Shown here in pieces: positions 2,766-64,000 of a DNA stretch of 64,000 nucleotides. Positions within the stretch are counted from its first letter, which is position 1. The number at the start of each line of letters is the position of its first letter. A program made the position numbers and the translations under genes. This stretch comes from Thermoleophilia bacterium. GTDB lineage: Bacteria > Actinomycetota > Thermoleophilia > RBG-16-64-13. The stretch lies in the NCBI GenBank assembly GCA_050943595.1, contig JBMNPM010000007.1, positions 6,288 to 70,287 on the forward strand, read 5' to 3'. Below the pieces are notes generated by a model. The model saw only the letters and a program-made list of their open reading frames with translations, made no database searches and had not been told where the DNA came from.

Positions 2766-3695
2766 TCACTGTTCTCCAACGTAGTCGGTCGGCCAAGTCA
2801 TCTGCAAGACCAATCCACGCCCCTGGGACTTCCCGCGGTACATCAAATCGTCGGCAAGCCTGATGGCGAAGTCCGCGTCGATCGGAGGCTCCACGAAGGT
2901 GATCGCTCCGAACGTCGCTCCAACGTTCCAGCGCTCACCCATCTCCCTACCGAATGAACCAGCAACACGTGAGAGCGCAGTATGCGCTTCATCAGTCCCC
3001 GCTGCGCTCAACAAGAGACCGAACTCGTCGCCACCAAGCCGAGCAGCAGTATCGACAGCGCGAAGTTCACGCTCGATCGTCTCTGCAACCGCTTGAAGAA
3101 GCCTGTCACCCTCTGAGTGTCCGTGCGTATCGTTCACCTGCTTGAAGTGATCCAGGTCTAGGTAGGCGATGGTGAAGGGTTGCCCGTGTCTTCGGGACCT
3201 GGAGACCTCCTGCTCCACCCGCTCTCTGAAGACGCGGGCATTGGCGATGCCGGTCAGAGAGTCCCTGCGTGAGAGCGCACGCACACGCTCATGCGCCCTC
3301 CGGACAACGGCGACCAGCTCGTTGATGCTCAGGAAGAAGAGGAGCCGCACGGTCGTGTTCCAAGCAGGAATCCACTCCGCGGAGTACGTACGTCCCGTAG
3401 CTTCCAAGTAGCCCCAGATTACTGCCCCTGCGACCGCTGCCAAGCGGCCCGCATTCCGCGAGATGAAGGCGCCTGCGAAGAGCACCGGGAACAGATAGAA
3501 GACCGAGAAGCTGAGCTCTTCACCGGTGAAATAGTCGAGCAGGGCCACGAAGCCCAAGAGAAGTAGGCAGAGACCGGCTCGAACCAACAACGGTGTCGCG
3601 GCGATGCGACGTGCAAGAGAGGGCGCCCTGCTCGGGATTGCAGCCCGCACCGAGGATGGGCGGTCATCCGATCCGCTGTCCCGCGCAACCGCCAA
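2766..3695 (-). CDS. Membrane-associated diguanylate cyclase (GGDEF, motif GGDEF, I-site RAVD).
   Basis: Hydrophobic N-terminus, then DSLTGIANAR...ARLGGDEFGLLL...GKSQGRG. Confidence 0.75.
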   Translation of the reverse strand: MAVARDSGSDDRPSSVRAAIPSRAPSLARRIAATPLLVRAGLCLLLLGFVALLDYFTGEELSFSVFYLFPVLFAGAFISRNAGRLAAVAGAVIWGYLEATGRTYSAEWIPAWNTTVRLLFFLSINELVAVVRRAHERVRALSRRDSLTGIANARVFRERVEQEVSRSRRHGQPFTIAYLDLDHFKQVNDTHGHSEGDRLLQAVAETIERELRAVDTAARLGGDEFGLLLSAAGTDEAHTALSRVAGSFGREMGERWNVGATFGAITFVEPPIDADFAIRLADDLMYRGKSQGRGLVLQMTWPTDYVGEQ

Positions 3696-4005
3696 CCCGA
3701 CCTCCTTTGGCCGTAATGTCCTGGTTGTGCCTAAAGCACCGCGCGTAACCTGCGCGGACTGCAGTCTAGTGGATTGTACCCGCAGCGCCTTGGCGTGTCA
3801 GGTTGATGGGCTTGCTTGGGTAGGTGGCCACTTGATGCTCACTTCTGCGATCAGTGCCGTCGTTCGGCATCAGACTTCGATTCAACGAGAGCGCCGCCAA
3901 TGCGCCGCCAATGTCATGTAAAGAGAACGTCGGCAATGGCCCGGCTGGGACGGCCAAGCTTATGTGACCTTCGAGCCGGAGGCGGTTGATTACCGGCTGC
4001 CGTAG

Positions 4006-4215
4006 GATCACTATATCGGGGATGTGGAGCACGCTATTTTACATCTGATGTACTCGCGCTTCTTCACCAAAGCACTCTACAATTTGGATGTGGTCGGTTT
4101 CGAGGAACCGTTCAAGAACCTGTTCATCCAGGTGCGGAGCTACGTGCTCTTCATGGGCCCGGCTGAAAGCGGTGTCAAGTGGAGCGACCAGGGCGTCGAG
4201 AGGAGGCTACTGTGA
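4006..4215 (+). pseudogene. leuS: Remnant of leucyl-tRNA synthetase (leuS) C-terminal region.
   Basis: In-frame fragment [42 protein letters not shown] ... [12 protein letters not shown] matches the LeuRS region around HLLYSRFF...EPFKRLF and the WSEQGVEG segment. It is bounded by a stop upstream, and the KMSKS region is absent. Confidence 0.55.
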
Positions 4216-4796
4216 CCGGACAGAAGCCGAGGAAAGTGGTAGTGTGTCTATCAATCCGTGCGACGCTCCTTTGCTGCCTGGTGGCCCTCGCTACGGCTTT
4301 TTGTGCCTGCGGCGGCGAGGATGCCGAACCGGCGACCACCACGATCACTACGGCTGTGGAGCCCTCCTCAACCAGCACGACATCGACGACTGAGTTGCCC
4401 ACTGCTGCAGAGCCTCCTACGACCCCGCCCGCGACCGTCGCTATCTCGGCTGCAGCTTCGGTGTACGCGGAGGACCTGGGCGGGACTTCGCATCAGGACC
4501 AGACGCTGTACTTCGTGGTGGGTGCGAGTGTCGGTAGTGAGGAGGAAGCGCAGACCCTGCTGGACGAGGCCGGCATGAGTTTCGGCGATATGCAATCCTA
4601 TTTCATCGTGCAGAACTCCAGCAACTTCGACGGCATGGAGCCGGGCCACTGGGTGATCGTAGAGGCCTACCGCGACGAGCCTTCGGCTGAGAATCTCGAC
4701 TTCGGCCGCCGCGCGTTCCCCGACCTACAGGTGGTGAAAGCCACGGTGTTGACCGGTGACCCCATCCCCGTCTACGAAGAGATCATGGGACTCTAG
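4212..4796 (+). CDS. Secreted/lipoprotein of unknown function with Thr/Pro-rich linker.
   Basis: GTG start at 4212 preceded by GAGAGGAGG RBS. Signal peptide with Cys-containing lipobox region ([10 protein letters not shown]), TTTITT/PPTTPP linker, ~110 aa C-terminal domain. Confidence 0.5.
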
Positions 4797-4889
4797 TAGT
4801 CCCTGGGGTGTGTGGCCGTCCTCCTGCCCGGTCGGGAACCATCAACCACGAGGGCCACCAAATCTCTCAGCGTCGGCGCACAGTGGTGA

Positions 4890-5078
4890 GGAACTCTTAG
4901 GCTGGATGAAGAACACAGGCGGCCTGCGCAAGCTCCTGCACTGAGGACTTGAGAAGGTGAGCAGGGTCTTCATCTTGGCCTGCATGGCCTTCAACCTGGT
5001 GCGAATGGGTACACTTATGGCGGAGCCATCACTCCCGCCCGTTAGCTTATTGAGGCTGTTCATCGGCGTCGACTATTA
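4890..5078 (+). mobile_element. 3'-terminal remnant of an IS1182-family transposase gene (frameshifted).
   Basis: LGWMKNTGGLRKLLH/GLEKVSRVFILACMAFNLVRM reproduces the IS1182 transposase C-terminal pattern (GQIK.NRGFRRFLLRGLEKVS....L.C.A.NL.K) with one frameshift. No intact transposase. Confidence 0.5.
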
Positions 5079-5101: not shown

Positions 5102-5845
5102 ATGGGGCGCTTGACCCGCACACTCCTCGTTCTCGCGGCCGTCATCGTCATCGCCCTGGCAGCGTGGTTTGGCATGGGTTTCTTCGTCGCGCCGGCTACG
5201 GGTCCTGTGAAGAGTCAGGTCAGAGAGGTAAGTGACTTCAACACGTTGAAGGTCGACGGACGAGGTACGGTCGTCATCAGGGTCGACGACAAGCCGGCGC
5301 TCCGAGTCGAAGCCAAAGAAAGCGTTCTTGAAAGGCTGCAAACACATGTGGACGGCCAGGTGCTGAGCCTTCATGAACGGTGGGGATGGATGGGTGTCGC
5401 CTTCCTATTCGGGGACCCGAAGATCACCTATTACGTGACCGTGCCCACTCTCTCATCCATCGACCTAAGTGGGTCCATCGTCATTGGGACGGAAGGCGTG
5501 CTCGCCGCGGACAAGCTCAGTATCGACACGAGCGGATCCTCCAATGTGACCATCTCGGTGAACACCAGCAGCCTCACCCTGGATTGCTCCGGCTCGTCAG
5601 ACGTCGACCTCTCCGGCACTGTCGACAACCTAGTCATCGAAGCCAGCGGCTCGACCGATGTACAGGCGCGAGAACTCGTCACCCGTATCGCAACGATCGA
5701 CTGTAGCGGCTCCTCCGACATCCATCTGAACGTCAGTGAGCTACTGACTGTGAAGATGTCCGGCAGTTCAAATGTGACCTATCTCGGAAACCCGCAACTC
5801 AATACCGACTTGTCCGGATCAGGACGGGTCCGCGCAGTCCAGTAG
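5102..5845 (+). CDS. DUF2807 / putative adhesin head GIN-domain protein (membrane-anchored).
   Basis: N-terminal TM, then repeated SGS(S/T)D(V/I) beta-helix-like units (DLSGSIVI, DTSGSSNV, DCSGSSDV, EASGSTDV, DCSGSSDI, KMSGSSNV). Confidence 0.55.
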   Translation: MGRLTRTLLVLAAVIVIALAAWFGMGFFVAPATGPVKSQVREVSDFNTLKVDGRGTVVIRVDDKPALRVEAKESVLERLQTHVDGQVLSLHERWGWMGVAFLFGDPKITYYVTVPTLSSIDLSGSIVIGTEGVLAADKLSIDTSGSSNVTISVNTSSLTLDCSGSSDVDLSGTVDNLVIEASGSTDVQARELVTRIATIDCSGSSDIHLNVSELLTVKMSGSSNVTYLGNPQLNTDLSGSGRVRAVQ

Positions 5846-31178: not shown

Positions 31179-34100
31179 TTAGTTAGGGCTCCTATATGCT
31201 TCTTTATCAAGGAATTCTTCCAGCGCTTCTGGTAACAGAGGCCTTGAAAAATAGTACCCTTGTATTTCATCGCAAGCTATGTTTCTCAGAAAATCCACCT
31301 GCTCCTTTGTTTCCACACCTTCTGCTGTAATATCCGCCATGAGAGTTCTGGCCAACGAAATAATTGTCTCCACTATAGCAGCTTTCTTTTCCTTTAAATA
31401 GATATCATCTATGATACTTTTATCTATCTTTATTCTGTCAAACGGTATCGATTCCAGCCTATGTAATGATGAGTACCCCTTACCAAAATCATCTAACGCA
31501 ATGCCTACTCCCAGCTCTTTTAGGCTAGATAGTTTTTCAATTACATCCTCAGGATGTTCAGAGAATACGCTTTCTGTAATCTCCAACTCAATATACTTTG
31601 GGTCTACACGATTTCTACCTATAATTTCTGCAAAATCAAGAATGAGATCTTCTACTTGTAGTTGCACAATAGACAGGTTTACAGAAAAACGAAGAGGTGG
31701 AAATCCTCTTAAAATAAGTCTCTTGTGCTCTTGTAGTGTCTGCTCAAACACCCAGAGCCCCACATCATAAATCAATCCAGTTTGCTCTAGTATGGATATA
31801 AATCTATCCGGTGATACTCTTTTATTCCCATCAATAGTCCATCTGAGTAAGGCTTCAGCCCCGACGGTTTTTCCTGTGTCACAACTAACCTGAGGCTGAA
31901 ACTCCAGAAAAAACTCTTTATTCTGCAGTGACCGGAAAAGCCGGTTTGTGAAAAGAGTATTTTCAGCAATATGCTCTTCCAATTTCTTACTATAGAAAAC
32001 AATATCTTTACTCGTATTTTTCGCTTGAAATCCTGCCATGTCGGCATTCTTCAAAAGAGTATATGCATCCTTTCCATCATCTGGATACACAGATATACCT
32101 ATGTGGATAACAGCAAAGAGTGCTTCTACTCCTGTGTCCGCAACTACGGGATGAGAGAAAGAATCAATCAGAGTCTGTGCGCAATTCTCTACCTGCTTAG
32201 TATCTTCTACAGTAGGCAGAACAATAGCAAACTCTCCTTCAGATGACCGTGAGATATCGCAACATTCCTCCAGTAGATTCTCGATCATTGTTGCAGATTT
32301 TATTACTATCTGCTCACCTATACTATGACCAAAGGTATCTTTGATAATCCTCAGATTATCTATTTCAATACTTAATACTGCTAATTTTCCTGAATCTCTT
32401 CTGCTATATATTCTTTGATCCAGTACCTGTATCAACCTATTCTTATTTGCCAATTTTGTATCTTCATCGAAATAAGCAAAATTATACAGTTTTTCTTCAT
32501 CTAGGATCTTTCTCTTCGCATCTCCCAGTATGTTCGCTATAAGGCTTAAGAAGTATGCTTGACTCTCTCTGAGCTTTTCGTCAATCTTACTATACTGTTC
32601 AACGACAAGCACTCCTATTATATTTTCATCAAGCTCTATTGGCAACATATAATAGGAATTTATTCCTCTTGATGTGAAGAATTTTCCTTCATCCCCATCT
32701 TCATCAACGAAAACATTTTTGATGTCTTCGCATGATATAGGTTGTTTATGCTCAATCATAGATTCAACCGTGGGGAAAGCCGCAGCTTCAACCTTCACAC
32801 CCGGGGGGAAAGGAAGTGATTTAGTAGATCCATCCGCCGTATACGCATCAATAATCATTGCATATTCGTAATCCCAACCTAACTCAACCAAATATATTTG
32901 ATCAATTTTAAGTATTTCAGCAGTTGATTTTAGCATTCCACTGATTTTTGCTTTTATATTTTCATTATCAACCGAAATAAAGGAGCTTGAAATTTTTTCA
33001 AGCACTTCGTGTTCTTTCGCAAATCTTTGATATCCTTTTAACTTTGAATCATATTCAGTTGTCAAATATCGGACAAGAACATAAGAAAGTACAACAATAA
33101 CTATTCTTTTCAGATACTGAGTATCATCGATAACGGTATAAGCTTTCGGATGAGTTATCCAAAGAATAACTTGACTTATCAGAGTTATTCCTAAAAAGAG
33201 TAGTGTGTGGATTCTGCTATTAAGAATAATTGTATATAAAAGAAACACTACATATACTGCCCATATTGTTACTCCTCCAATATCAGCATCTCTAATTATG
33301 AAAAAAGACATGCCAACTATGCTTACTACAAGGAATAGAGTGTTCTGAATGTTGTCTTTTGCTGATATATAAGGTATAAATATTAAAAATGCACCTATAA
33401 CTATCACAGTCAAAGCGAGTGGAAGTTCATTTGCCAAACTCCCACTCGCAGTAAAGTATCCTAAAAAGAAGGACCCTGCCCCACCTGCCATAAATATTAC
33501 TGCTGCCGTCTGAAACAAACGCAATCGGCCTTTTTCTAGAGCAATGGTGGAGCCCATAGGCGAATATGTTGCCCTGGGTTTTTCAATAATAAAGCCGAAT
33601 TTCTTCAAGGTTTGAAATAAGACTATTGTGGGAAAGATTAAAAGTATAAGCGTAATTCTAGGAGTTTGGTATAACCCCAATGCACCGGGTAAAATATCAT
33701 TTATTGTTCCCACAACGAGGGGAAGCATTATGGCTATTAAAAAGTACTGCACTTGTCGCTTCATAGGGTTTTGAGGATCAAGTTTTTTCCACCAACGAAT
33801 AATTAATATAACCGCAGCGACTGTATATACAATGTAGTAAAAATTAATCCATATTTGCCCAATATTTGCGGGAAGAGAATTTCTCCATCCAAAATCGCTC
33901 GGTACCATTTCATATTGGTTCTCTGCTAAATACCCAAAGGGTGCAAACAGGAATATATTTATGAAAGTGGGAAAATAGACAATTATAAAGTTTTTAAAAT
34001 TGTTTACTTGATGTTTATTATTTGTTAGTATCAACGCAAAGTGAAGTAACAGGTTGTGGAAGATTCCCCATCCAAAAACAGAGAGGCACCTCCAAAAAGC

Positions 34101-34292
34101 ACTCGATTCCGCCGTCATTGCTGAGTTTGAAATAGAGTACGTGAATGCCCAAATTGCCATTGAGCTTGTTAATAACATAAATAGCCTATTGGTACTGCTT
34201 TTTATGTTGGAAACTATAGCATAGGGACCAAAGAGCATGTAAAAACAAGCGCAAGCATAGTACACAGCAGACATAATTAAGCTGTATTTCAT
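31179..34292 (-). CDS. Multi-TM sensor - GAF - degenerate GGDEF (SEGEF) - EAL c-di-GMP phosphodiesterase.
   Basis: ~12 TM N-terminal region, GAF-like segment, GGDEF-like domain with degenerate motif, intact EAL (EAL, DDFG(K/T)GYSS, QGY). Extremely AT-rich (~33% GC). Confidence 0.8.
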   Translation of the reverse strand: MKYSLIMSAVYYACACFYMLFGPYAIVSNIKSSTNRLFMLLTSSMAIWAFTYSISNSAMTAESSAFWRCLSVFGWGIFHNLLLHFALILTNNKHQVNNFKNFIIVYFPTFINIFLFAPFGYLAENQYEMVPSDFGWRNSLPANIGQIWINFYYIVYTVAAVILIIRWWKKLDPQNPMKRQVQYFLIAIMLPLVVGTINDILPGALGLYQTPRITLILLIFPTIVLFQTLKKFGFIIEKPRATYSPMGSTIALEKGRLRLFQTAAVIFMAGGAGSFFLGYFTASGSLANELPLALTVIVIGAFLIFIPYISAKDNIQNTLFLVVSIVGMSFFIIRDADIGGVTIWAVYVVFLLYTIILNSRIHTLLFLGITLISQVILWITHPKAYTVIDDTQYLKRIVIVVLSYVLVRYLTTEYDSKLKGYQRFAKEHEVLEKISSSFISVDNENIKAKISGMLKSTAEILKIDQIYLVELGWDYEYAMIIDAYTADGSTKSLPFPPGVKVEAAAFPTVESMIEHKQPISCEDIKNVFVDEDGDEGKFFTSRGINSYYMLPIELDENIIGVLVVEQYSKIDEKLRESQAYFLSLIANILGDAKRKILDEEKLYNFAYFDEDTKLANKNRLIQVLDQRIYSRRDSGKLAVLSIEIDNLRIIKDTFGHSIGEQIVIKSATMIENLLEECCDISRSSEGEFAIVLPTVEDTKQVENCAQTLIDSFSHPVVADTGVEALFAVIHIGISVYPDDGKDAYTLLKNADMAGFQAKNTSKDIVFYSKKLEEHIAENTLFTNRLFRSLQNKEFFLEFQPQVSCDTGKTVGAEALLRWTIDGNKRVSPDRFISILEQTGLIYDVGLWVFEQTLQEHKRLILRGFPPLRFSVNLSIVQLQVEDLILDFAEIIGRNRVDPKYIELEITESVFSEHPEDVIEKLSSLKELGVGIALDDFGKGYSSLHRLESIPFDRIKIDKSIIDDIYLKEKKAAIVETIISLARTLMADITAEGVETKEQVDFLRNIACDEIQGYYFSRPLLPEALEEFLDKEAYRSPN

Positions 34293-35241: not shown

Positions 35242-36393
35242 CTAACGATATATCACCCTGTCTCTCCCCTCTCCTTTAGCCAAATAGAGGTTTGTGTCCG
35301 CAGCTTCCAGAAATTCAGAGTAAGAGATGCCCTTTACATAACTACTGAGTCCACCGGAAAGTGTTACCGGCTTACCGTGGCTCCATGCATGCGCCCTCAC
35401 CCGATCGCAAAGTGCCTGCACTATGGGCAGTGCTTCCATCGCAGTTTTGCCCGGCGAAAGCACCACAAACTCCTCTCCGCCATATCGACCGAAGATCTCT
35501 TCTTCTGTCAGACTGTCCCTCATGATCTGCGCAATATTGATTAGAACATTGTCACCATACTCGTGCCCATATGTATCATTTATTTCCTTAAAATAGTCGA
35601 TATCCAATATGCAAACCGTCAATTGCGATCCCGTATCGTACGACCGGCGCATTTCCTCGTCGATGCTCGCTGATAAGAAGCGGCGATTGTATAGGCCGGT
35701 CAGGGCATCGGTCTGTGAGATATGCTCCAAGCGGTTTACCAATCTCATCTTTTCATTATGCAACTTCGTATACGCATTCATAACCCTGTAAACTAAAATA
35801 GAACTAACCACTATACACATGGCATAGGTAAACACCAGATCCTCAAACTGTTCTTCACGGCCGGAATACGGTATAATGATATCCGGATAATGATATTCCA
35901 GCACGACAAATACAATCGACATTATCGATAATGCAGACAGCATACCAATGCGTACTGCTCCTTTGAAAACGAAAGCTACGCACAAAGCTCCCACGAGCAG
36001 TACAGGACCAGTGGAGCCGGTCGCCCCACCAATCGTGAACCATAGAAAAGGAATCAGAAGAAAAACAGAGGAGCCTACAACAATAAGGGCAGATCTATAC
36101 CAGCGCTTTGTGACTATACTATATATAGCGCATGAGATGTTCATCAAGATGTACAACACGTATACCGGCAATATAAGTATGCCTAGATCATTCAATATAT
36201 TATAGCCGATTCCGATCATGACCATAAGAAGACCGGCAGCGGCAGTGTATAGAAAAATATTGTGCTCTAGAGGCAAATCTTTAGTGTCAAAAAACTGAAG
36301 AACTCTTTTAAGCAAACTCATCCTTGTTGTTTTTACGGCGGTATTTTCTTCATTATCAGGTGCTCTCTTTAAGTTAGCTTGTAATAACATCAC
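35242..36393 (-). CDS. Membrane (6-7 TM) sensor diguanylate cyclase (GGDEF, motif GGEEF, no I-site).
   Basis: TM N-terminal half, then TDALTGLYNRR...GRYGGEEFVVL. AT-rich (~38% GC). Confidence 0.8.
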   Translation of the reverse strand: MMLLQANLKRAPDNEENTAVKTTRMSLLKRVLQFFDTKDLPLEHNIFLYTAAAGLLMVMIGIGYNILNDLGILILPVYVLYILMNISCAIYSIVTKRWYRSALIVVGSSVFLLIPFLWFTIGGATGSTGPVLLVGALCVAFVFKGAVRIGMLSALSIMSIVFVVLEYHYPDIIIPYSGREEQFEDLVFTYAMCIVVSSILVYRVMNAYTKLHNEKMRLVNRLEHISQTDALTGLYNRRFLSASIDEEMRRSYDTGSQLTVCILDIDYFKEINDTYGHEYGDNVLINIAQIMRDSLTEEEIFGRYGGEEFVVLSPGKTAMEALPIVQALCDRVRAHAWSHGKPVTLSGGLSSYVKGISYSEFLEAADTNLYLAKGEGRDRVIYR

Positions 36394-53997: not shown

Positions 53998-54137
53998 TGT
54001 TGAACCCGGGAAACCTACCAGCGCGCAGACCCGCCGTCAACCCCTTCGACCCCTTGCCTCAGAGGCCTTTCTCCCGTGCCCCGCAGGCCCTCCCTAGACG
54101 CACAGCACGCACAGCAGGTTATAAAGCAGGAGACAAA

Positions 54138-55040
54138 CTACTCGTCATCCCACCCGGCGCTACCCTTGTCGTCAGCGGTATACGCAAGGATGTTCTCAAC
54201 CTCGCCGGCCGACAGGGGCGGATTCCGAGCAAGCATGAGCGCAATCACCCCGGCAACCACAGGCGAAGCGAAAGAGGTGCCGTTAGAACAGCCGATGTCC
54301 CACCGGGAACCGCTCCCCTTGTCATATGTCGCCATGTGCTGGCCTGGCGCCACAAGATCGAGTTCCGAACCATAGCCATCGTTGCCCGCTGCAGCTACAA
54401 CTATGGCTCCGCGGCGTTGCGCGTGCTCAATCTGTGAACCGGCATAATCTTCGCCTTCCAGTCAACCCCCGCTATACCGATAGCGTTATTCCCTGTCGCA
54501 GCCAAGATTCCGGCTACAGCCCGTTCCGTGGCCTTCCTTGTCATTCCAATACTGGTAGGCAGAGCTACCATAATAGACGCTGTAAGGACTGACCACCCGA
54601 CCGGCAAAATCGGTGAGTTGGGCTAGGCCAGTATCAATGACGGACACCGTCACCGAGGTAGAACCGGTCGTAAGATCCCATGCCGCTGGAAGACCAATGG
54701 CGGCAGGCCCCCACTGCTTGGCGTACAAAAGGGGTGAACTTGACCACCAACCTGTCTGCTGCGGCCGGCGCTGGCTCATCAGCCGAGTAGAGCTGCGCGC
54801 TCACCAGCGACTGGGGGAGTCGCGAAGAACAGATAAATCGGCAACCTGCCCCGATACGCTGGTGATAGCTTCACCAGCCGGGATATCTCGTGCCGGTAGG
54901 GTTGCCAGATTTGGTACAGATAGAGCCAAAGCAGGCGCGGCCATTCCGCACACCGCCACTGTGATAGCCAGCAGGCAGGCGAGAGCAATGCTGGAAACAA
55001 AGGCGCCGCACAACCATCTTAGATTGAACAGCTCACGCAC
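54138..55040 (-). pseudogene. Subtilisin-like (S8) serine protease pseudogene split over three frames.
   Basis: Signal peptide (54801-55040 frame); Asp motif VSVIDTGL and His motif HGTG (54486-54779 frame); AAGNN (54401-54607 frame); Ser motif GTSFASPVVAGVIALM (54138-54353 frame). Confidence 0.65.
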
Positions 55041-55090
55041 CCTTCCCCTACACTGCTCCCGCCTGAAAAAATCATCGAATCATAGCCTTA

Positions 55091-55280
55091 AGCGGCTGCT
55101 GAACTATGACGCTTCGCCGCCGGAACACGATCAGCACGCATCAGCACGCGCGAAAAGAGGAGAGAGGGGGCGCGAATAGCAGCGCTATTCGCGCGACCGA
55201 TGACGTACTATCGTGCTGCTCAGTGTGTTCCGACGGCCGGGGTTTTGTTTTCCAGCAGCCCCCTATTTTCAGCAGCCTCC
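55091..55280 (+). mobile_element. MITE-like repeat, copy 3 (right TIR partially duplicated).
   Basis: AGCGGCTGCTGAACTATGACGCTTCGCCGCC...CGCGAATAGCAGCGCTATTCGCGCG...TTTTCCAGCAGCC..TTTTCAGCAGCCTCC. Confidence 0.65.
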
Positions 55281-55307
55281 TAAGTGGCAAGAACCGGGCC
55301 AGCCCCC

Positions 55308-56630
55308 TTACCTATGCAGCAAATTGTAGAGCACCAGGCATACCTCCCCACGGGTAGCCGACTTAAAGAAATTGTAGTTAGGGCCAATACCCTCCAGGCC
55401 GTTAAGCAGTCCGGCATAAGCGGCAGTGCGGGAGAACGGGTAATGGGTGTTGTCATATCTTGAGAACGGAGGCGTGTAGTCCCTTGGAGGATCCGCGATA
55501 CCGGCAGCCCTCGTTACCATAGTAATGAGCTGCGCCCGAGTAATGTTGCCGAACGGATCAAACTTTGTCGGGGTCTTGCCGACAGTAACGCCACGCGCTG
55601 CACACACCGCCACGTATTTATCGGGATAAAGTGGGTCGTTCGCGTCAAGTCCACTTGGCACATCGGTAAAAGGACATGCATTCGCTTGAGACACCGGGTA
55701 TCCCATGGTCTTCACGATCATCTTTGCGAACTGCTGCCGTGTGACAGACGAGTTGGGCTGAAACGTTCCATTAGGAAAGCCACTGATTATCTTGCGGTCC
55801 GCCAGATCATTGATCTGCCGGAAGTAGCGGTGCTGAGAAGTTACGTCGCTGAACTGACCGTCTTGATATGTAGATCCTGATCTTGAGTAGGTCGCGTACC
55901 CATCGTCTGGCAGATCATCCGAATAGTAGTTATTGGTACCTTCGTAGAAACTATACATAAAGAAATTAAAACTAAGGGGCGACCCCAGATAGGAAACCGG
56001 CACCCAAATCAAAATGGAATGACCATCAGAGAGTTCCGTGTACCCCACTTCTCCTACAGTAGACCAGGTATTATCGTCTTCTGAAGGAGTCTTTACTAGA
56101 GTGGCAATCCAATCACCATCACTACCGTCACTTTCTATAAAAATGGAGTAGTCAGAACCCAGATTTATTGACGGCCAATAATCGCCAGTGCGGGGGTTCT
56201 TATCAACATCAAGACAGATATCCACATATTCATTATCTCCAATCCCAACAAAAGGATCGGCAAACTCGATTAAAAAGTTATATGTAGAATCATCCTTATC
56301 GTAAGCAATCTCCAGACTACTAAAGTCTAGTGCCAGGGAGACGTCTCCATCAGAATCGTAGTATGCCTGGATATCCTGATAGTCCTCCTGGATATACCGT
56401 ATACTGTTCTGGGCAGATAGAGTTGACTTTTTGGATAGCTTGGAAACTCCAGGATGATCAGAAACCGCTGATAACTTAGACTCAAAGCTCTTAATGAGAG
56501 AGTGAGGTACGGTACCGGCAGACGCCATGGAAGCTGCTTCAGCCTTCGGCTGAACGAAAACAAAAGCACTCAAGAGCAACATAGTGCAGCAGGCAACCGC
56601 AGCTATAATCCAATGACAAGCTTTTTTCAT
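55308..56630 (-). CDS. Cell-surface protein with C-terminal SLH (S-layer homology) domains.
   Basis: Signal peptide, then three SLH repeats (FSDVTSQHRYFRQINDLADRKIISGFPNGTFQPNSSVTRQQFAKMIV; FTDVPSG...; ITRAQLITMV). Lower GC (~48%). Confidence 0.7.
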   Translation of the reverse strand: MKKACHWIIAAVACCTMLLLSAFVFVQPKAEAASMASAGTVPHSLIKSFESKLSAVSDHPGVSKLSKKSTLSAQNSIRYIQEDYQDIQAYYDSDGDVSLALDFSSLEIAYDKDDSTYNFLIEFADPFVGIGDNEYVDICLDVDKNPRTGDYWPSINLGSDYSIFIESDGSDGDWIATLVKTPSEDDNTWSTVGEVGYTELSDGHSILIWVPVSYLGSPLSFNFFMYSFYEGTNNYYSDDLPDDGYATYSRSGSTYQDGQFSDVTSQHRYFRQINDLADRKIISGFPNGTFQPNSSVTRQQFAKMIVKTMGYPVSQANACPFTDVPSGLDANDPLYPDKYVAVCAARGVTVGKTPTKFDPFGNITRAQLITMVTRAAGIADPPRDYTPPFSRYDNTHYPFSRTAAYAGLLNGLEGIGPNYNFFKSATRGEVCLVLYNLLHR

Positions 56631-56895
56631 AGAAACCAGCTCCTCCACTCGTTGGTAATCCGGTCCCAAGAGACAATATCCTAGCTACTCATGCTACACC
56701 GACAGCACAACAAAGTAAACAGCGCCCGGTCGGCCTCTTAGTGTTAACTAAAACCCGGCCTCACATCAAAAGCAGAGCCGTGGTGTCGGTTGATGCGGCG
56801 AGATAGACCAACGATACGGGTAGCCCAACATGGAACCTTGTGCCCCGCGCCCCTCGGCGCTGCACCTGTTCTGTCGCCTCATGCAGCCTCCTCCG

Positions 56896-59211
56896 TCAGC
56901 TCCATGAGCTGCCGTCCGCCCTAATAAGCATCGTAGCCGCCGCCAAGCGGCTGATGGCCTCCTGGGGAGCCAGGTTGCCGGCGGAGGTGCCGCGGGTGAT
57001 GCCCTGACGTACGGCGAAGGCCATCTCATCACGCAGGGAGCTGCTCACGGCAGCGTGGTCACCGAAGGTGGCCAGGGTGCTGGTGATCTCGGCTTCGGTC
57101 ATGGCGGCAAGGTCGAAGCCGGCCTGGGAGGCCACCCGGCGGGCGATGATGGCCAGAGCCTGTTCTCGGGTGATAGTGATATCGGGAGCGAAGAGACCGT
57201 CACCGATGCCGTTTACCAACTGTGAGGCGTAGGCCCCCTCGATGTAGCCGAAGTAGAAGTGGTCCGCAGGCACGTCGCTGAAGGTGGCGGTGGTGGGATG
57301 AGTCTCTGCGATAGCGAAGGTGGCGGTGGCCATCTTCACAAACTGGGAGCGGAGGATGCTCTGGTGCGGCCGGAAGGTGCCGTCCTCATAGCCACGGGAG
57401 ATCCCCGCCAGCTGGGACAAGCTCACACCGTAGCCGGAGAGGGTGTCTGCGGAGAGGTCGGACCAGGAGGGAGCGACCGCAATAGTGACCCCCACAACAT
57501 TCTCAATCACAACGTCAGACCGGGTCAGGCCCGGGCAGTAGATGCGTAGCGGCCGTACACTCCCTTCGACACGTTGGCCGCTTTCGAAGGCGTCATAGGC
57601 CACGAAGCACCTATCCTGCTCCTCGGGGCCGATCACGCGACTGCTGTCAATCACTCCGTTGCCATCATCCACATGAACAGTGACCCCTCGGCCGCCGGCG
57701 GCACCAAATCCCATTGACGACAGCACCTTGGTGAGCGGAACACCAACCACGTTGTGCGTGAAGTGGGCATCGCCTTCCGACCCGAAGTAGGATGTGTGAT
57801 AGATGCCCAGGAGGGCTATGTCCGATAGACTGATGGTCTTGCTCGTACTACCCTCGGTGACTTTCAAGGCGGGCACATCCGACCCCGCTCGAATCTTGCA
57901 CGTATCCTTGACAAAGCCGCAGTTGTTAGCCTCCGTGGCATGCGTCTGTCCGTAGACAAACAGAGGACTCGGCTCAGCCACGGCGCTGGTTGCGGTGGGA
58001 AGCACCACGCTTGGGTCGGGATGCAGCGCCGTCCTTGCTTCGGCGCTGTAGAAGACCAGCATCGGGCCCACGGCGGCACCCACGGTTCCGTCCGGCGCGA
58101 TGTAGTTGCGGCCTGTTCTAACACCGAAGGCATCGTTGACAAGATGGGCGTACGCGCGGCCTCCCGCCACCGCCTCCACGACCATGGGACCGCCAGCCAC
58201 GTCGACCCCTAAGGCAGACAGGGTCACCCCCAGATCGACACCTTCCACCAGGCTATATGTGTACTCCGGGGTGCCGTGGTTGTGATAGGAGGAGTAGAGG
58301 ATGGGCTTTTCAGTCCACGAATTGCCCAACCCCAAACCGTTCACACTCCGCGTAGCTTTGATGAAGTCCACCTGCGCCTTATCGAGATACACAAAACTGC
58401 CCAGCAGCCCCTTTCCTTGACTTATCCCGGTCCCTCCGATCACCAATCCGGCCGTCGCCGGCGACAATCCACCCAGATCCACACCGTTGCTACGCGCCAG
58501 TTCCACTTTCGGCAGCGGGACTGCCGACCCATCCGCCTGGGTTATCCGCAGAGCGGTTGTTCGTTCCATGTAGACCGCACCGTCACCGGCACCTGCAGCT
58601 TGGTCCCCACCTCCCTTTCGAGCAACGCGCAGATACGAGGCGGCGTACGCAGCAGAGGAGTCGGGGTCTTCAGTACTGAGCCTCGCCTCCGATACGTCGT
58701 TCACTCTCGTTGCCAGCATGTAATGATGACGTGCGTAGTCCTTTGCCTCACCCACAGAAAACGCCTCGTTTTGAGCACCATCGTCGGTGATAACCGTGAT
58801 GCGGTAGTCATCCTGTAGCGTCATATTCAGTGTTTCTTCGATGCTCGATAACACATCGCCCAGCCTTATACCCCAGCAGCTGTCCAGCCTTATGGCCCAG
58901 CCGCCACCTTCAGTATCCACGTTTGCATATACCTGGCTTTCCCATCTGCCGGCAAACTTGTAGCCCGCAACCCCGTTCATATCTCCCCAGGTATAAGGCA
59001 GTACCACGTCTCCAATGCCGACATTCAGCACCACGGCATCGTTCGCCGGATCAGCAGCCGCCACGTACGTAGATTTACCTAGAGCCGAGGGCACGTGTCC
59101 AAGTACCATCACGAGCATCACAACCAAAATGGCGCCGCCGGCGCGCACCGCCAACGCGACAAACCGCCGACCGACGCTGCTGCCCCCTCTGCTCACCTCA
59201 AGCTCCTTCAT
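56896..59211 (-). CDS. Large exported SLH-domain protein (candidate S-layer / cell-wall-anchored surface protein).
   Basis: Signal peptide; ~550 aa Gly/Thr/Val-rich beta-rich region; three C-terminal SLH repeats (FSDVPADHFYFGYIEGAYASQLVNGIGDGLFAPDITITREQALAII). Confidence 0.7.
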   Translation of the reverse strand: MKELEVSRGGSSVGRRFVALAVRAGGAILVVMLVMVLGHVPSALGKSTYVAAADPANDAVVLNVGIGDVVLPYTWGDMNGVAGYKFAGRWESQVYANVDTEGGGWAIRLDSCWGIRLGDVLSSIEETLNMTLQDDYRITVITDDGAQNEAFSVGEAKDYARHHYMLATRVNDVSEARLSTEDPDSSAAYAASYLRVARKGGGDQAAGAGDGAVYMERTTALRITQADGSAVPLPKVELARSNGVDLGGLSPATAGLVIGGTGISQGKGLLGSFVYLDKAQVDFIKATRSVNGLGLGNSWTEKPILYSSYHNHGTPEYTYSLVEGVDLGVTLSALGVDVAGGPMVVEAVAGGRAYAHLVNDAFGVRTGRNYIAPDGTVGAAVGPMLVFYSAEARTALHPDPSVVLPTATSAVAEPSPLFVYGQTHATEANNCGFVKDTCKIRAGSDVPALKVTEGSTSKTISLSDIALLGIYHTSYFGSEGDAHFTHNVVGVPLTKVLSSMGFGAAGGRGVTVHVDDGNGVIDSSRVIGPEEQDRCFVAYDAFESGQRVEGSVRPLRIYCPGLTRSDVVIENVVGVTIAVAPSWSDLSADTLSGYGVSLSQLAGISRGYEDGTFRPHQSILRSQFVKMATATFAIAETHPTTATFSDVPADHFYFGYIEGAYASQLVNGIGDGLFAPDITITREQALAIIARRVASQAGFDLAAMTEAEITSTLATFGDHAAVSSSLRDEMAFAVRQGITRGTSAGNLAPQEAISRLAAATMLIRADGSSWS

Positions 59212-59466
59212 TCATCCGTGTACCCGGCGCTGTTCTCTGTCCACCGACATATCCCCCGCGTATCAAGGGCAGCAGGAGACAACCGGCAGAGCCGCATTAT
59301 ACCTCGCTTAATATAACGACGGCGATCCAATCTCTTCACGCCCTCCCGTTGGTGTCAATGGAACTCTGCATCGTCTACGCCGACAGAGGGGTATGTGAAG
59401 TTAGGTCTCTCCCCTCAGGGGTATTATTGGAACGAGTCCAGGCCGAGAAAGAATGAAGGAGAGACC

Positions 59467-59766
59467 ATGAAGACCAAACGGTGGGCCACCCTCTCGGTCG
59501 GCAGCAAAGTGGCCCTTGTCCTGACGGGCGCACTGCAGGTAGGCCTGCTGGCGGGAACCCTGTGGGACATCGCACACCGATCCTCTGCAGAAGTCCGCGG
59601 AGACAGGCGCATGTGGGTCGGATTGGCGTTCATCAATTGGTTCGGTCCGCTGGCTTACTTCACCATCGGCCGCAAAGAAGGGCTGGTGACCCTCGCGAAG
59701 CGCTACTGCCCCATCCGACGCTCAGAGCGCACGAGCGGCGGCGAGATGGACACGGGCCGGGCTTGA
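59467..59766 (+). CDS. PLDc_N-domain small membrane protein.
   Basis: LWDIAHR...RMWVGLAFINWFGPLAYFTIGRK is the PLD-nuclease N-terminal (PF13396) pattern. Confidence 0.6.
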   Translation: MKTKRWATLSVGSKVALVLTGALQVGLLAGTLWDIAHRSSAEVRGDRRMWVGLAFINWFGPLAYFTIGRKEGLVTLAKRYCPIRRSERTSGGEMDTGRA

Positions 59767-59852
59767 CCGGACCTATGCCACCCACAGACAGAGGGGGATC
59801 GCCACGCGCAGCGGCGATCCCCACTAGGCAGGCCGCGGACGATGCCCGCTTC

Positions 59853-60314
59853 ATGACACTCGCCATCGAGGAAGCCCGCTGGGCCGCTGAACAAGGTGAA
59901 GTCCCCGTAGGAGCCGTCCTCACCATCGATGGAGCAGTGATCTCTGCCGCCGGAAACGAGCGCGAACGGCGCCACGATCCCACGGCCCATGCAGAGATGT
60001 TAGTGCTGCGACAGGCGGCCGAGCGACTTGGGGGATGGCGGCTCCACGAGGCCACCTTGTACGTGACCCTCGAGCCGTGTGCCATGTGCGCCGGGGCCAT
60101 CGTCTTGGCCCGTATCAAGCGGCTTGTCTACGGAGCCGACGACCCCAAAGCCGGAGCGGCCGGCTCGATCTTCAACATCGTCGAGCATCCAGCCGTCAAT
60201 CATCACCCCGAGATCAGAGCCGGCTTCATGGCCGCCGAGGGTGCTGCCGTGTTACGAGAATTCTTCGAGAGTAAACGAGACAACAAGGGACCCTCACATG
60301 TCGCCTCTCAATAG
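59853..60314 (+). CDS. tadA: tRNA-specific adenosine deaminase TadA.
   Basis: CMP/dCMP deaminase zinc motifs HAEM and LEPCAMCAGA. Confidence 0.85.
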   Translation: MTLAIEEARWAAEQGEVPVGAVLTIDGAVISAAGNERERRHDPTAHAEMLVLRQAAERLGGWRLHEATLYVTLEPCAMCAGAIVLARIKRLVYGADDPKAGAAGSIFNIVEHPAVNHHPEIRAGFMAAEGAAVLREFFESKRDNKGPSHVASQ

Positions 60315-60544
60315 AATGTCCGCGGCTCCAGCCAGACCGCGCACAAGTGAAGAGGACTGCCAAGTCGCGCAACGGGGACTCGCCGTGGCAACCATCTGAA
60401 AGTTCCGCCTGGTCCGTCCGGTCGGTCCCTCAGTCCATGCGCAGGCCCCGTCTGATGCTCGAGTCCTGCCGCTTCAACCGCGAATCGGCTACAATCGCTC
60501 TGCGTTGCGCGCGGCTGTACGAAAGGCCCGCCAGGCGCCCATGT

Positions 60545-60633
60545 GGAGAGGTGGCAGAGCGGTTGAATGCGGCGGTCTCGAAAACCGTTGGGCCGTGCAA
60601 GCGGTCCCGGGGGTTCGAATCCCCCCCTCTCCG
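60545..60633 (+). tRNA. tRNA-Ser (anticodon CGA).
   Basis: GGAGAGG acceptor pairs with CCTCTCC; anticodon loop CUCGAAA; long variable arm; GGTTCGAAT T-loop. Confidence 0.8.
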
Positions 60634-60972
60634 CCTCGTCACCACCTACCCAAAAGTCACCTGCCGATATTAAAGGCAGGAGCTCTCAGCAGGGCCTTGG
60701 AGGAGATTCCGAGCCCGCGAGGGTGCAGGCGTCAGCAAGACAGTCCCTTCGGACAGGGGGCCGCGCCGGTGTCATCGAGTAAGAACACTATTGTGACGAG
60801 ATTAAGGAAATCGTAGGGCAGTCATGGGCGGGGCATTCGACAGTACGAACGAACTCCAGCATCCCAGAGGTGAACAGCCGCGTACGTAGTGTCGCTCCGC
60901 CTAGAGGCTGCCGAAGGGTACCGAGTGTCACAGCCGCTCGCTTCTGGGCGATTCGGTGGCTGGGTGCAAAAA

Positions 60973-63747
60973 CTAGAAGGGAGTGGGGGTAGGAAGGAGC
61001 ATGTGATGCCTCTGGATGGCCGCCTCTTCTTCCTCAAGGACCCCGAGGAAAGCCTCGACCATATGTGGATCGAGCTGGGTGCCCATCACTCTCCTGAGCT
61101 CGGCCTTTGCATGATAGGGCGAGAGTCCCTTGCGGTAAGGGCGGTCGGTAGTCATAGCAGAGTAGGAGTCTGCGACGGCCAGAATCCGTCCGAGCAGGGG
61201 GATCTCCTCCCCTTTCAGGCCCCGCGGGTATCCTTTACCATCGTAGCGTTCATGGTGTGCACCCACTGCACTGGCAACCTCCTCTTGGTTGGGCATCCCC
61301 TGGACGATGAGTTCACTCAAGGTTACGTGGTGCTTGACCACCTCGAACTCCGTGTCGCTCAGCTTGGTGGGTTTGCGCAGGATGTGATCCGGCACACCCA
61401 GCTTACCCACGTCGTGGAGGAGTGCAGCCGTTCTCAACAAGTGCTGGGTGTCGGGGGGGAGCCCCAGCTTGGCGGCAAGAGCTACGGCGTATACGGCCAC
61501 ATCCTCAGAATGACGACGCGTGTAGTGATCCTTGCTGTCTACGGTTGTCACCAGCCCGTCGAGTACGGAGAAACGTGCGAGCGCCGTCTTGTGGTCAATG
61601 TCGTCGTCGCTGGAAGGCGTGACGAAGCCCCTCCCTTGTTTCTTGGAGCTGTATAGGTTGGCATCTGCGGCGGCCAATATTTCCGCCGGGGTTTGCCCGT
61701 CACAGGGGAAGGTCGACACACCGTAGCTCATCTGGATCGATGTGGTGCGGCCATCATCGACCATGTAAGGGCTGTCTTTAATATAAGGGCTGTCTTTAAT
61801 AGTGGTACGGAGGCGGGCCAACACGTTGAGGGCGACATCGGTGTCGGTATCGGGGAGTACGATGATGAATTCATCTCCACCTAGACGGGCGATGATGTCA
61901 TTGGGTCGGAGTGAGGTGGTGAGAATAGCGGCTATGCTCTGCAACACTCGGTCGCCGACGACGTGTCCGTAAGCCTCGTTGAAGCGCCTGAAGTCGTCGA
62001 TGTCGATTATGATCAGACTGAAGGTTGAGCCCGAATGGCTACAACGTTCCACCTCCCGATCTAAGTATCTGTTCAGGCCACGGTTATTGAGAAGGCGGGT
62101 GACGGAGTCGTGTTCGGCCAAGAATTGAGCGTGCTCATAGCGGCGGACGTTATCCAGGACTCCGGCGATCTGTGAGGCGACGGTGTTAACCAGCATCCGC
62201 ACCTCCTTCTTTGCACCGAAGTCGGGATCTGTGCTGACTAGACACAGGGCTCCCATATTGACATCTCGTGAGATGAGCGGCGCCACGATCACCCTTTCGA
62301 AATCGACGCTGGGACGAGGGGGAATACTGGAGTGATCTTCCCCTCGGGTGATATGTGGGATGTCGAGACAAACCACTGACTGCTCGGTCGTGGCGACCTG
62401 CAACTCCTCCGAGGTTTCCAGCAGGTCTCGGAGCGTCTCCCAGGATGCGTGGGAGAAACCGTCATTCTCGAGAAGCTTCGCCTCGCCTTGGTCGGTGCGG
62501 ATCCACAGAGTACCGGCGTCTGCACCCACGATCTTGCAGGCCAGTCTCGTGCCGGTATGGAACACCCCGATACTGGTGGTGCAACGGGTGATTACCATCG
62601 CCATCGTGCTTATGTAAGTCAGGCATTCCTTCTCGGCGATCAACTCTGCCGTTCGTTCGATGACTCGATGTTCGAGCTCATTGTGGGACTCTTCCAGGGC
62701 CAGTTCTGCCGTTTTATGGGCGGTGACGTTGCGGAGTACCAAGATGGCCCCGCAGATATGGCCTCGGCTGTCACGGAGCGCAGAGACATTTCTGTCGTAG
62801 TATTCCCCCTCGTGCTTCCACTCGCGCACTTTGTCGTTGTTCCCTTCGGGGGCTTGTCCCGTAGACATCGAGCAGGGGGGAGCCATGGCCATGAGTTTAT
62901 CCAACGGCATACCCGCTGCATCAGTCAGCTTGGTGGACAGCAACACCTCAGCCGCCGGATTGATGTAAACGCATCGCTGCATGGTGTCGGTGACAATAAG
63001 GGCATCGCTCATATGTCTGGTCACGAACTCTCGGGCCACGGGCGCGATGTCCAGTAGCCGGTAGCGGATAAAGCCCCAATAGAGGACAATTCCTACCCAA
63101 GCGAAAAGGGCGGGAGCATAGTTGATGGATTTGGGCGGCATGCCGTAGGTGTAGATGGCGTCCACCGTCAGAGGCACGATCGCGGCTGCCATCAGGGCAA
63201 AGGACTGCCGCTTGTAGAGACCGATTTCGCTGACAAACAGCACGATTAATACCACGAAGCCGGCCAGCATCAGGGTGTAATTGTAGGTGGAATCGACCCA
63301 CCACCATATGCCCCGGGTGCCGTGTAGGAGCAGATGGTCTCCGACCCTGTCCATGGCGAGCGAGCTGAAGATGAGCCCGTGTTTCTCGTTGGTCCATACG
63401 AGGATCTGGGTGACGACCGGAAGGGCACAGAGCCCCATCAGCATCTTTGACTTTGAGATCCTCGGTTGGACTCGTCCCGAGTACTGGGCCGCGAATATGA
63501 GCCAGGCGACACTAAGGGTGCTCGTGCCGATGAAGGAGAGTTTGCGAAAGAGCACGGCCGCTCCCAGACTGCCCGAGATCAACTCCAGTGCGGTCGTCCA
63601 GGCCCATATCGCACCGCCTATGGTGATCGCCGCCAGCGCAGTCGAGCCGGCTAGATGTCTGCGTCGTAACGCGAACACACCCACAGTGATCGATATCACG
63701 CCGGCCAACAGCATGAGGTGCATGTTGGTATTCGTCTGCCAAGTCAT
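60973..63747 (-). CDS. 7TM receptor - PAS - GAF - GGDEF - HD-GYP bifunctional c-di-GMP signalling protein.
   Basis: N-terminal 7 TM (7TMR-DISM-like), PAS, GAF-like, GGDEF (RLGGDEF, I-site RPND), C-terminal HD-GYP (LHDVGK...HHERYDGKGYP). Internal tandem DSPYIKDSPY. Confidence 0.85.
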   Translation of the reverse strand: MTWQTNTNMHLMLLAGVISITVGVFALRRRHLAGSTALAAITIGGAIWAWTTALELISGSLGAAVLFRKLSFIGTSTLSVAWLIFAAQYSGRVQPRISKSKMLMGLCALPVVTQILVWTNEKHGLIFSSLAMDRVGDHLLLHGTRGIWWWVDSTYNYTLMLAGFVVLIVLFVSEIGLYKRQSFALMAAAIVPLTVDAIYTYGMPPKSINYAPALFAWVGIVLYWGFIRYRLLDIAPVAREFVTRHMSDALIVTDTMQRCVYINPAAEVLLSTKLTDAAGMPLDKLMAMAPPCSMSTGQAPEGNNDKVREWKHEGEYYDRNVSALRDSRGHICGAILVLRNVTAHKTAELALEESHNELEHRVIERTAELIAEKECLTYISTMAMVITRCTTSIGVFHTGTRLACKIVGADAGTLWIRTDQGEAKLLENDGFSHASWETLRDLLETSEELQVATTEQSVVCLDIPHITRGEDHSSIPPRPSVDFERVIVAPLISRDVNMGALCLVSTDPDFGAKKEVRMLVNTVASQIAGVLDNVRRYEHAQFLAEHDSVTRLLNNRGLNRYLDREVERCSHSGSTFSLIIIDIDDFRRFNEAYGHVVGDRVLQSIAAILTTSLRPNDIIARLGGDEFIIVLPDTDTDVALNVLARLRTTIKDSPYIKDSPYMVDDGRTTSIQMSYGVSTFPCDGQTPAEILAAADANLYSSKKQGRGFVTPSSDDDIDHKTALARFSVLDGLVTTVDSKDHYTRRHSEDVAVYAVALAAKLGLPPDTQHLLRTAALLHDVGKLGVPDHILRKPTKLSDTEFEVVKHHVTLSELIVQGMPNQEEVASAVGAHHERYDGKGYPRGLKGEEIPLLGRILAVADSYSAMTTDRPYRKGLSPYHAKAELRRVMGTQLDPHMVEAFLGVLEEEEAAIQRHHMLLPTPTPF

Positions 63748-63837
63748 ACTGTCCTACCCGTCCACGAGCGATTCTATGACCACCTTCGGCGTTGGCGAAG
63801 CTTGACTTGAGCTGTTCGTTGGTTGACATGGAGTCAG

Positions 63838-64000
63838 ACTGTGATGAGATTCAGCACCACGGCATCGTTTGTCGGATCAGCAGCCGCCACGTACGTAGAC
63901 TCACCTAGGGCCGAAAGCACGTGTCCGAGCACCATCACGAACGTGTCAAGGGCGGCAGGAAATCTGTAGGACCCATTATAACTTCTCTTCATATAATAAT
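63838..64000 (-). repeat. Duplicated promoter + 5' coding cassette of the SLH gene 56896-59211 (start codon region deleted).
   Basis: 63838-63940 is ~90% identical to 59020-59110 (encodes VMVLGHVLSALGESTYVAAADPTNDAVVLN), and 63950-64000 resembles 59260-59330. The window ends inside the repeat. Confidence 0.6.

Follow-up and report, generated by a model that had tools for sequence, protein, structure and literature searches.

Systems that switch the expression of surface layer (S-layer) proteins hold several full-length homologues with conserved 5′ regions, and the inversion or replacement events by which they operate leave the genome viable; in Campylobacter fetus, the sap rearrangements are inversions between oppositely oriented homologues. 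Duplications followed by deletions, for their part, leave gene-fragment pseudogenes in bacterial genomes. C. fetus has one sap promoter, which drives transcription of just the homologue lying immediately downstream (PMC3887049). Promoters can also be relocated by duplication, as typified by the rnk-citT duplication of the Escherichia coli long-term evolution experiment (LTEE), a recent and unstable event that was shown to activate citT (PMC5918244). Here we compare with these systems a locus in a 64,000-nt stretch of a Thermoleophilia bacterium contig (GenBank JBMNPM010000007.1; hereinafter the window), where part of the promoter and 5′ coding region of a gene for a 771-aa SLH-domain protein recurs upstream of a gene encoding a 924-aa 7TM-PAS-GAF-GGDEF-HD-GYP protein (hereinafter the GGDEF/HD-GYP gene). 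A preliminary interpretation made without database searches (hereinafter the sequence-only reading) had seen in this repeat a possible cassette for S-layer phase or antigenic variation and, as an alternative, a recombination scar. Our analysis points, at a probability of roughly 80%, to the copy at 63846–64000 being the decayed remnant of a local segmental duplication and not a working recombination cassette.

A fragmentary second copy of the SLH gene 5′ end

Comparison of the window with itself using blastn recovered an ungapped 95-nt match between 59020–59114, inside the SLH gene, and 63846–63940, with 89.5% identity and a significance far beyond chance (E = 1e-31). Collinear with it is a promoter-like match (59259–59316 against 63942–63996; 75% identity, E = 0.01 when taken alone), which on a longer contig reaches 59356 (about 74% over 99 columns of a local alignment). 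This contig, JGI (Joint Genome Institute) 3300060803 Ga0591958_0000295 (112,310 nt; hereinafter L003), was found by exact-protein look-up; it shows 0 mismatches to the window over 17,105 nt and continues for 5.2 kb beyond the window edge at 64000 (window position = 69212 − L003 position). Between the two matched pieces, alignment shows that about 144 nt of the SLH gene (59115–59258), comprising the distal 5′ untranslated region (UTR), the ribosome-binding site (RBS), the start codon and codons 1–32, have no counterpart in the copy. Both the duplication itself and the deletion of the start-codon segment had been recognized in the sequence-only reading, and both stand. Its description of the duplicated coding part as the first ~100 coding nt needs correction: the piece spans nt +98 to +192 and so runs from the last part of the signal peptide into the mature protein, whereas coding nt 1–97 belong to the missing segment. 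The two copies lie on the same strand and thus form a direct, not an inverted, repeat; their longest common perfect run is 27 nt, and the spacing from one SLH fragment to the other is 4826 nt.

As for further copies, none was found by blastn in the window or in the 5 kb past 64000, and an exhaustive HMMER search with the N-terminus of the SLH protein against 1.84 billion protein representatives recovered a 52-aa open reading frame (ORF) of the remnant as the sole extra copy. The remaining matches of this search were the protein's own cluster, orthologous modules of about 50% identity and two repetitive low-identity matches. The survey thus ends with two DNA copies in the window and, among proteins, only the remnant ORF. 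An exact 27-mer scan of genome and metagenome contig collections gave 0 matches, and as it failed to return even the known carrier contigs, it is uninformative on further copies. The arrangement is identical in the assembled contigs of three assemblies from different samples or assemblers, namely L001 (JGI 3300060823), L002 (Logan assembly of SRR31066172) and L003, with no structural variation among them.

Past position 64000, L003 carries an operon encoding an FtsX/MacB-type permease and a LolD/MacB-like ABC ATPase. No SLH paralogue or silent cassette occurs in the 5.2-kb extension; the ABC transporter operon stands where a complete paralogous SLH gene would have pointed to a simple gene duplication. 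Directly 5′ of the SLH-derived pieces we found a 44-nt duplicate of the start of the GGDEF/HD-GYP gene (L003 5136–5179 against 5458–5501; 90.9% identity, E = 7e-11), hereinafter the stub. The ATG of the stub and the ABC ATPase stop codon overlap as ATGA, and homology of the ATPase itself stops near residue 225 of 253. Read toward the GGDEF/HD-GYP gene, the pieces follow one another as the GGDEF-start stub, the SLH promoter, the SLH 5′ coding piece, 91 nt of other DNA and the intact GGDEF/HD-GYP gene, so that the order of the duplicated fragments (GGDEF start, SLH promoter, SLH 5′ coding region) equals their genomic order.

The 91 nt between the remnant and the intact gene bear on how the junction arose. 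Orthologues of the GGDEF/HD-GYP protein that are 53–56% identical to it (L004–L009) share the motif TCAAGCT-N13-GCCGAA in their upstream regions. The pattern TCAAGCT-N(6–15)-GCCGAA is present only once in the 64-kb window, both strands included (0.05 expected), as TCAAGCT-N8-GCCGAA at 63785–63805, inside the 91 nt; a motif of the same pattern occurs once per orthologue locus, always upstream of the GGDEF gene, and the chance of its landing in this 91-nt stretch is about 1e-5 to 1e-4. Because this orthologue-conserved motif lies there, we take the 91 nt to be native to the upstream region of the GGDEF/HD-GYP gene, and the novel junction is therefore the one between SLH +192 and GGDEF −98. The 91 nt also contain a promoter-like TCGCCA-16-TAGAAT at 63771–63798 (promoter scan), and the −35-like TCGCCA is overlapped by the window motif. 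From its conservation, TCAAGCT-N8-13-GCCGAA may be a candidate operator or promoter element of this 7TM-PAS-GAF-GGDEF-HD-GYP orthologue group.

These arrangements are best accommodated by a tandem duplication followed by decay. The unit would be a 4826-nt segment (L003 5367–10192) that begins 98 nt before the GGDEF/HD-GYP gene, ends at SLH nt +192 and contains the GGDEF/HD-GYP gene, tRNA-Ser, tadA, a PLDc_N gene and the promoter and 5′ end of the SLH gene; its tandem duplication would have created the junction of SLH +192 with GGDEF −98. In the upstream copy, a deletion of about 4.3 kb from GGDEF +37 to the SLH promoter would have removed the redundant GGDEF-to-PLDc_N block and left the 44-nt stub, and the RBS, start codon and codons 1–32 of the SLH gene would have gone in a 144-nt deletion between short imperfect repeats. 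On the left side, the ABC ATPase gene would have come to abut the stub through a further deletion or a rearrangement. Some 230 nt (the stub, the SLH promoter piece and the SLH coding piece) would then have survived, drifting neutrally. The surviving pieces and their layout are seen directly in the structure of the locus. A tandem duplication of the 4826-nt unit predicts the junction, the 4826-nt spacing and the stub–promoter–coding order all at once, and each is found: SLH +192 abuts the native 91 nt in the same orientation, a trace of the proximal gene persists as the stub, and the spacing equals the length of the unit. The scar that had been offered as the alternative explanation is upheld by the same stub, fragment order, spacing and junction.

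Divergence and constraint in the remnant

A contig from ENA (ERZ778039; hereinafter L010) encoding a homologue of the SLH protein with 77% identity served as outgroup. Both copies, the one in the SLH gene and the remnant, match L010 at 75.8% and each other at 89%, so the duplication is younger than the split from L010 and yet old, with a divergence of about 10%. Divergence amounts to 9% in the stub, 10.5% in the coding piece and 26% in the non-coding promoter piece; by these values, the stub and the coding piece are of similar age, and the higher value for the non-coding piece is what an absence of constraint on both of its copies would produce. The 8 differences that could be polarised split 4:4 between the functional gene and the remnant. 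Three of the four changes in the functional gene are at third codon positions, and those in the remnant fall at codon positions 2, 1, 3 and 1; the remnant, which lacks a codon-position bias, is thus under no coding constraint.

Two other roles for the copy were rejected. A functional peptide of 34–52 aa is ruled out by the missing RBS and by the remnant-specific substitutions being mostly non-synonymous, and a structured leader RNA by the folding of L003 5244–5480, which is less stable than that of shuffled sequences (z = +1.9). A search of 54000–64000 against Rfam (E ≤ 1) returned no riboswitch or leader family in either copy, the only matches being tRNA-Ser and sub-threshold overlaps.

Several points weigh against the duplication-and-decay account. 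Upstream of the stub, the 84 nt that a simple tandem duplication should have left are missing, and the sequence there shows no significant similarity to the 91 nt (1466 of 2000 shuffles score as well in local and 1678 of 2000 in global alignment); the missing left flank is why the extra deletion has to be invoked. The orthologues at 53–56% identity adjoin an aminotransferase gene instead of the ABC operon, and the history of rearrangement in the region is therefore more complex. The upstream motif was picked out post hoc. No close relative is at hand to display an intermediate state, the closest comparison loci being the GGDEF orthologues of at most 56% identity, which lie in another neighborhood, and the 77% SLH homologue of L010, whose 6.4-kb contig offers 130 nt upstream of the gene. 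Lastly, survival of a 6-nt −10 box is expected by chance in about 4 of 10 cases (an estimate from the observed divergence), so that its retention is not statistically notable.

Competing explanations

An origin by tandem duplication is compatible with the remnant having been kept because it works, its SLH-type promoter driving or co-regulating the GGDEF/HD-GYP gene and so tying the turnover of cyclic di-GMP (c-di-GMP) to the wall-anchored protein; we see this as a minor but real possibility. The TATAAT −10 box (63975–63980) is intact in the remnant and conserved in L010, where GTATAATG of the donor promoter is retained; it points towards the GGDEF/HD-GYP gene, whose start lies about 220 nt downstream, with no terminator-like site between them in a sequence scan. 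The parts that would yield a truncated signal peptide are gone and the promoter stayed. An SLH-type promoter would thus appear to face the GGDEF/HD-GYP gene in a promoter-capture topology like that of rnk-citT, in which a tandem duplication of a few kb likewise set a distal promoter and a truncated 5′ end before a proximal gene (PMC5918244). Unlike rnk-citT, the redundant upstream copy is here almost wholly deleted and the fragments are about 10% diverged, making the event old and trimmed. However, the remnant has lost the TTGGA element found upstream in both the SLH gene and L010, its promoter piece is its most diverged part, the GGDEF/HD-GYP gene retains a native upstream motif and a promoter-like site, and the would-be leader shows no RNA structure signal. 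With these points weighed, functional capture of the promoter is a rather doubtful proposition. Unlikely, too, is the fuller version in which a long-fixed natural capture was shaped by selection that removed the redundant genes and a toxic signal-peptide stub but kept the promoter, leaving c-di-GMP turnover co-expressed with the surface protein.

A distinctly less probable origin is a templated insertion by template switching or break repair, resembling microhomology-mediated break-induced replication or fork stalling and template switching (MMBIR/FoSTeS), into an ABC–GGDEF junction that was originally coupled through ATGA. The two SLH 5′ pieces and the 91 nt would then have been inserted and a 44-nt target duplicated. 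The ATG of the stub does overlap the TGA of the ABC gene as in coupled operons, the ends of the 44-nt repeat are sharp with no homology detectable further upstream, and short imperfect repeats (TTGATACGC and TGTGATGCTC) stand at the internal 144-nt gap. Against this, the 91 nt carry the GGDEF-orthologue motif and so are native upstream DNA, not filler; coupling to an ABC gene is not seen in the orthologues; and the tail of the ABC ATPase beyond about residue 225 of 253 may just run on to the first stop. A tandem duplication, moreover, accounts directly for both the collinear order and the 4826-nt spacing. Either event would have left a recombination scar.

The S-layer switching that the sequence-only reading placed first would require the 5′ cassette to recombine with the expressed SLH gene, in the manner of C. 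fetus sap or Lactobacillus acidophilus slpA/slpB. There are indeed two copies of the promoter and 5′ coding region of an SLH gene within 5 kb, recalling the C. fetus sap locus in that a surface-gene promoter and its conserved 5′ region are repeated in a small region, and conserved 5′ regions do serve such systems (PMC3887049). Unlike sap, however, the locus has one full gene and a start-less fragment of about 190 nt of SLH-derived sequence, in place of a paralogue family with at least two full-length interchangeable surface genes or cassettes, and neither a second SLH gene nor a silent cassette flanks the copy. The repeats being direct, recombination between them would excise 4.8 kb with the GGDEF/HD-GYP gene, tadA and tRNA-Ser(CGA) instead of inverting a promoter. 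The gene tadA is essential in E. coli and Bacillus subtilis, and the interval between the repeats thus probably holds what a sap- or slpA/slpB-type system would keep out of it. With 89.5% identity over 95 nt, no perfect run above 27 nt and a promoter piece at about 74%, the two copies also fall short of a near-identical recombination substrate. The copy lacks an RBS, a start codon and coding constraint, no recombinase is present among the called neighboring genes, no further copies turned up in the searches described above, and the assembled contigs of the three assemblies are identical across the locus. The S-layer (lattice-forming) status of the 771-aa protein, proposed in the sequence-only reading, is itself unproven. 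Because the locus departs from switching systems in orientation, match length, interval genes, the start-less copy, neighbors and copy number, we regard switching as very improbable and abandon that lead.

An assembly artefact, in which SLH 5′ reads would have been chimerically joined into the GGDEF upstream region, might be suggested by the metagenomic source and by an abrupt change of divergence near the locus in L001, but is practically negligible because the three assemblies (JGI 3300060803, JGI 3300060823 and the Logan assembly of SRR31066172) carry the same arrangement and the copy, unlike mis-joined reads, is about 10% diverged from its donor. In L001, all 23 substitutions and 3 indels relative to L003 fall within about 470 nt (L001 30–500 against L003 4368–4831, in the 5′ half of the ABC ATPase gene outside the window), and the 3,550 nt that follow are identical; from this clustering we suspect a breakpoint of recombination between strains or a chimeric assembly.

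The GGDEF/HD-GYP protein, the SLH proteins and their neighbors

The coordinates of the features are collected in Table 1. Pfam resolves the 924-aa protein as HisKA_7TM-PAS-GAF-GGDEF-HD_5 (GGDEF, E = 5e-41; HD_5, E = 1e-38), and the GGDEF, HD and GYP motifs, a signature of c-di-GMP turnover, are readable in its translation, in agreement with the architecture first assigned to it from the letters. Four more c-di-GMP genes lie in the 64 kb, encoding HAMP-GGDEF (978–2363, + strand), GGDEF (2766–3695, − strand), 7TM-GGDEF-EAL (31179–34292, − strand) and GGDEF (35242–36393, − strand) proteins; such signalling proteins are abundant in the lineage, and two have the same HisKA_7TM sensor module.

Table 1. 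Features of the SLH–GGDEF/HD-GYP region in window coordinates, with L003 coordinates where indicated
Feature	Position	Strand	Evidence or remarks
Subtilisin-like S8 peptidase pieces	signal-peptide ORF 54801–55040; D-T-G/H-G-T-G 54486–54779; 54401–54607; G-T-S-F-A-S-P 54138–54353	−	
453-aa exported SLH protein	55308–56669	−	Pfam SLH E = 1.6e-19, 2 scored stretches from residue 273
771-aa SLH-anchored wall protein, donor of the duplicated fragments	56896–59211	−	Pfam SLH ×3, E = 9e-22
Donor coding fragment, SLH ORF nt +98 to +192	59020–59114	−	89.5% to 63846–63940
SLH 5′ segment without counterpart (distal 5′ UTR, RBS GAAGGAG, start codon, signal-peptide N and H regions)	59115–59258	−	Alignments
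Donor SLH promoter and proximal 5′ UTR	59259–59356	−	TATAAT −10 box 59296–59301; ~74% to copy
Small PLDc_N membrane protein, within duplicated unit	59467–59766	+	Pfam PLDc_N E = 1.7e-4; JGI 99-aa gene
tadA-like tRNA adenosine deaminase, within unit	59775–60314	+	Pfam MafB19-deam E = 1e-38, dCMP_cyt_deam_1 E = 2e-29; JGI 179-aa gene
tRNA-Ser(CGA), within unit	60545–60635	+	ARAGORN; Rfam tRNA 57.7 bits
924-aa 7TM-PAS-GAF-GGDEF-HD-GYP protein	60973–63747	−	Pfam; start MTWQTN.. against orthologue MAWQSN..
Start of the GGDEF/HD-GYP gene	L003 from 5465; window 63747 downwards		Start by orthologue alignment
Right copy of 44-nt direct repeat, GGDEF gene −7 to +37	63711–63754	−	90.9%, E = 7e-11
Native GGDEF upstream DNA, 91 nt	63755–63845 (L003 5367–5457)	−	Motif 63785–63805; no other window match
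Remnant SLH coding fragment	63846–63940 (L003 5272–5366)	−	No own start codon or RBS; JGI 52-aa ORF across
Remnant SLH promoter and proximal 5′ UTR	63942–64000, ~32 nt further outside the window (L003 5180–5270)	−	~74% to L003 9856–9953; TATAAT 63975–63980
Left copy of 44-nt repeat (GGDEF stub)	equivalent of 64033–64076 (L003 5136–5179), outside the window		Overlaps ABC ATPase stop codon
ABC ATPase gene	ends L003 5146, outside the window		LolD/MacB-like

The two adjacent SLH proteins both have hydrophobic N-terminal leaders visible in their translations, as expected of exported, wall-anchored proteins. The triple SLH repeat attributed to each is found by Pfam in the 771-aa protein, with three stretches; the 453-aa protein has SLH, but as two scored stretches in its 180-aa C-terminal region, and its N-terminal domain matches no Pfam family. 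The annotated ATG of the 771-aa protein (59211) lies inside the best RBS, GAAGGAG, and a GTG at 59196 is positioned 6 nt downstream of that RBS; the GTG is likely the true start, giving 766 aa. NCBI holds an identical 766-aa protein (P0048 in our set) as 'SLH domain-containing protein [Thermoleophilia bacterium]'. The leader of the 771-aa protein contains GRRFVAL, a Tat-like (twin-arginine translocation) stretch.

Between the leader and the SLH region, a module of about 550 aa (residues ~40–575) shows no sequence match in Pfam or PDB, and is 49–64% identical across Actinomycetota, Firmicutes (Syntrophomonas and others) and a Methanobacterium. The anchors found among 23 aligned proteins with this module are Flg_new (8), dockerin (7), SLH (6) and Big_5 (4), and one Methanobacterium protein has CFI-box-CTERM instead of these. 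That so conserved a module is combined with different anchors suggests a functional unit outside the cell and not a lattice-forming protein. Some Cys, His and Tyr residues of the module are invariant, and Oxidored_molyb is a marginal match in two homologues; an AlphaFold2 model of the 771-aa protein built with 23 homologues was too poor for use (mean predicted local distance difference test score, pLDDT, 49.5). Like Bacillus anthracis wall proteins of the Sap/EA1 type, the 771-aa protein has triple SLH, with weak matches to solved S-layer SLH domains (PDB 3pyw, 6bt4). Unlike in these, its SLH region is C-terminal, and the ~550-aa module is conserved across phyla and not a typical fast-evolving lattice domain.

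The L010 contig carries two adjacent SLH genes (131–2419 and 2536–5052) with an identical SLH region of about 190 aa, which could reflect gene conversion between neighbors or a collapse in assembly. The second of these has SLH in mid-protein and, after it, a domain that matches Oxidored_molyb faintly. Beside the SLH genes of the window, a subtilisin-like S8 peptidase gene (54138–55040, − strand) is broken into at least 4 ORF fragments in different frames, of which JGI calls only a 65-aa Peptidase_S8 fragment, and is probably a pseudogene.

Implications

Like other gene-fragment pseudogenes, the remnant consists of short, start-less, neutrally evolving fragments that are collinear with their parents, and it lies beside a stub of the neighboring gene; it differs from them in no essential way. 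The feature is thus of an ordinary kind, remarkable only in that the surviving pieces include a promoter. Its relevance beyond this genome is small, and the false lead of S-layer switching is removed. What it offers is a tidy natural case of a tandem duplication after long reductive decay, with a gene stub, a promoter with a 5′ piece and the junction still kept. If the surviving promoter is active, the locus would be the equivalent in nature of the rnk-citT capture seen in the laboratory, and a small case of how c-di-GMP genes can be rewired. The uncharacterised extracellular module of about 550 aa, with its swapping of anchors, may hold more biological interest than the repeat.

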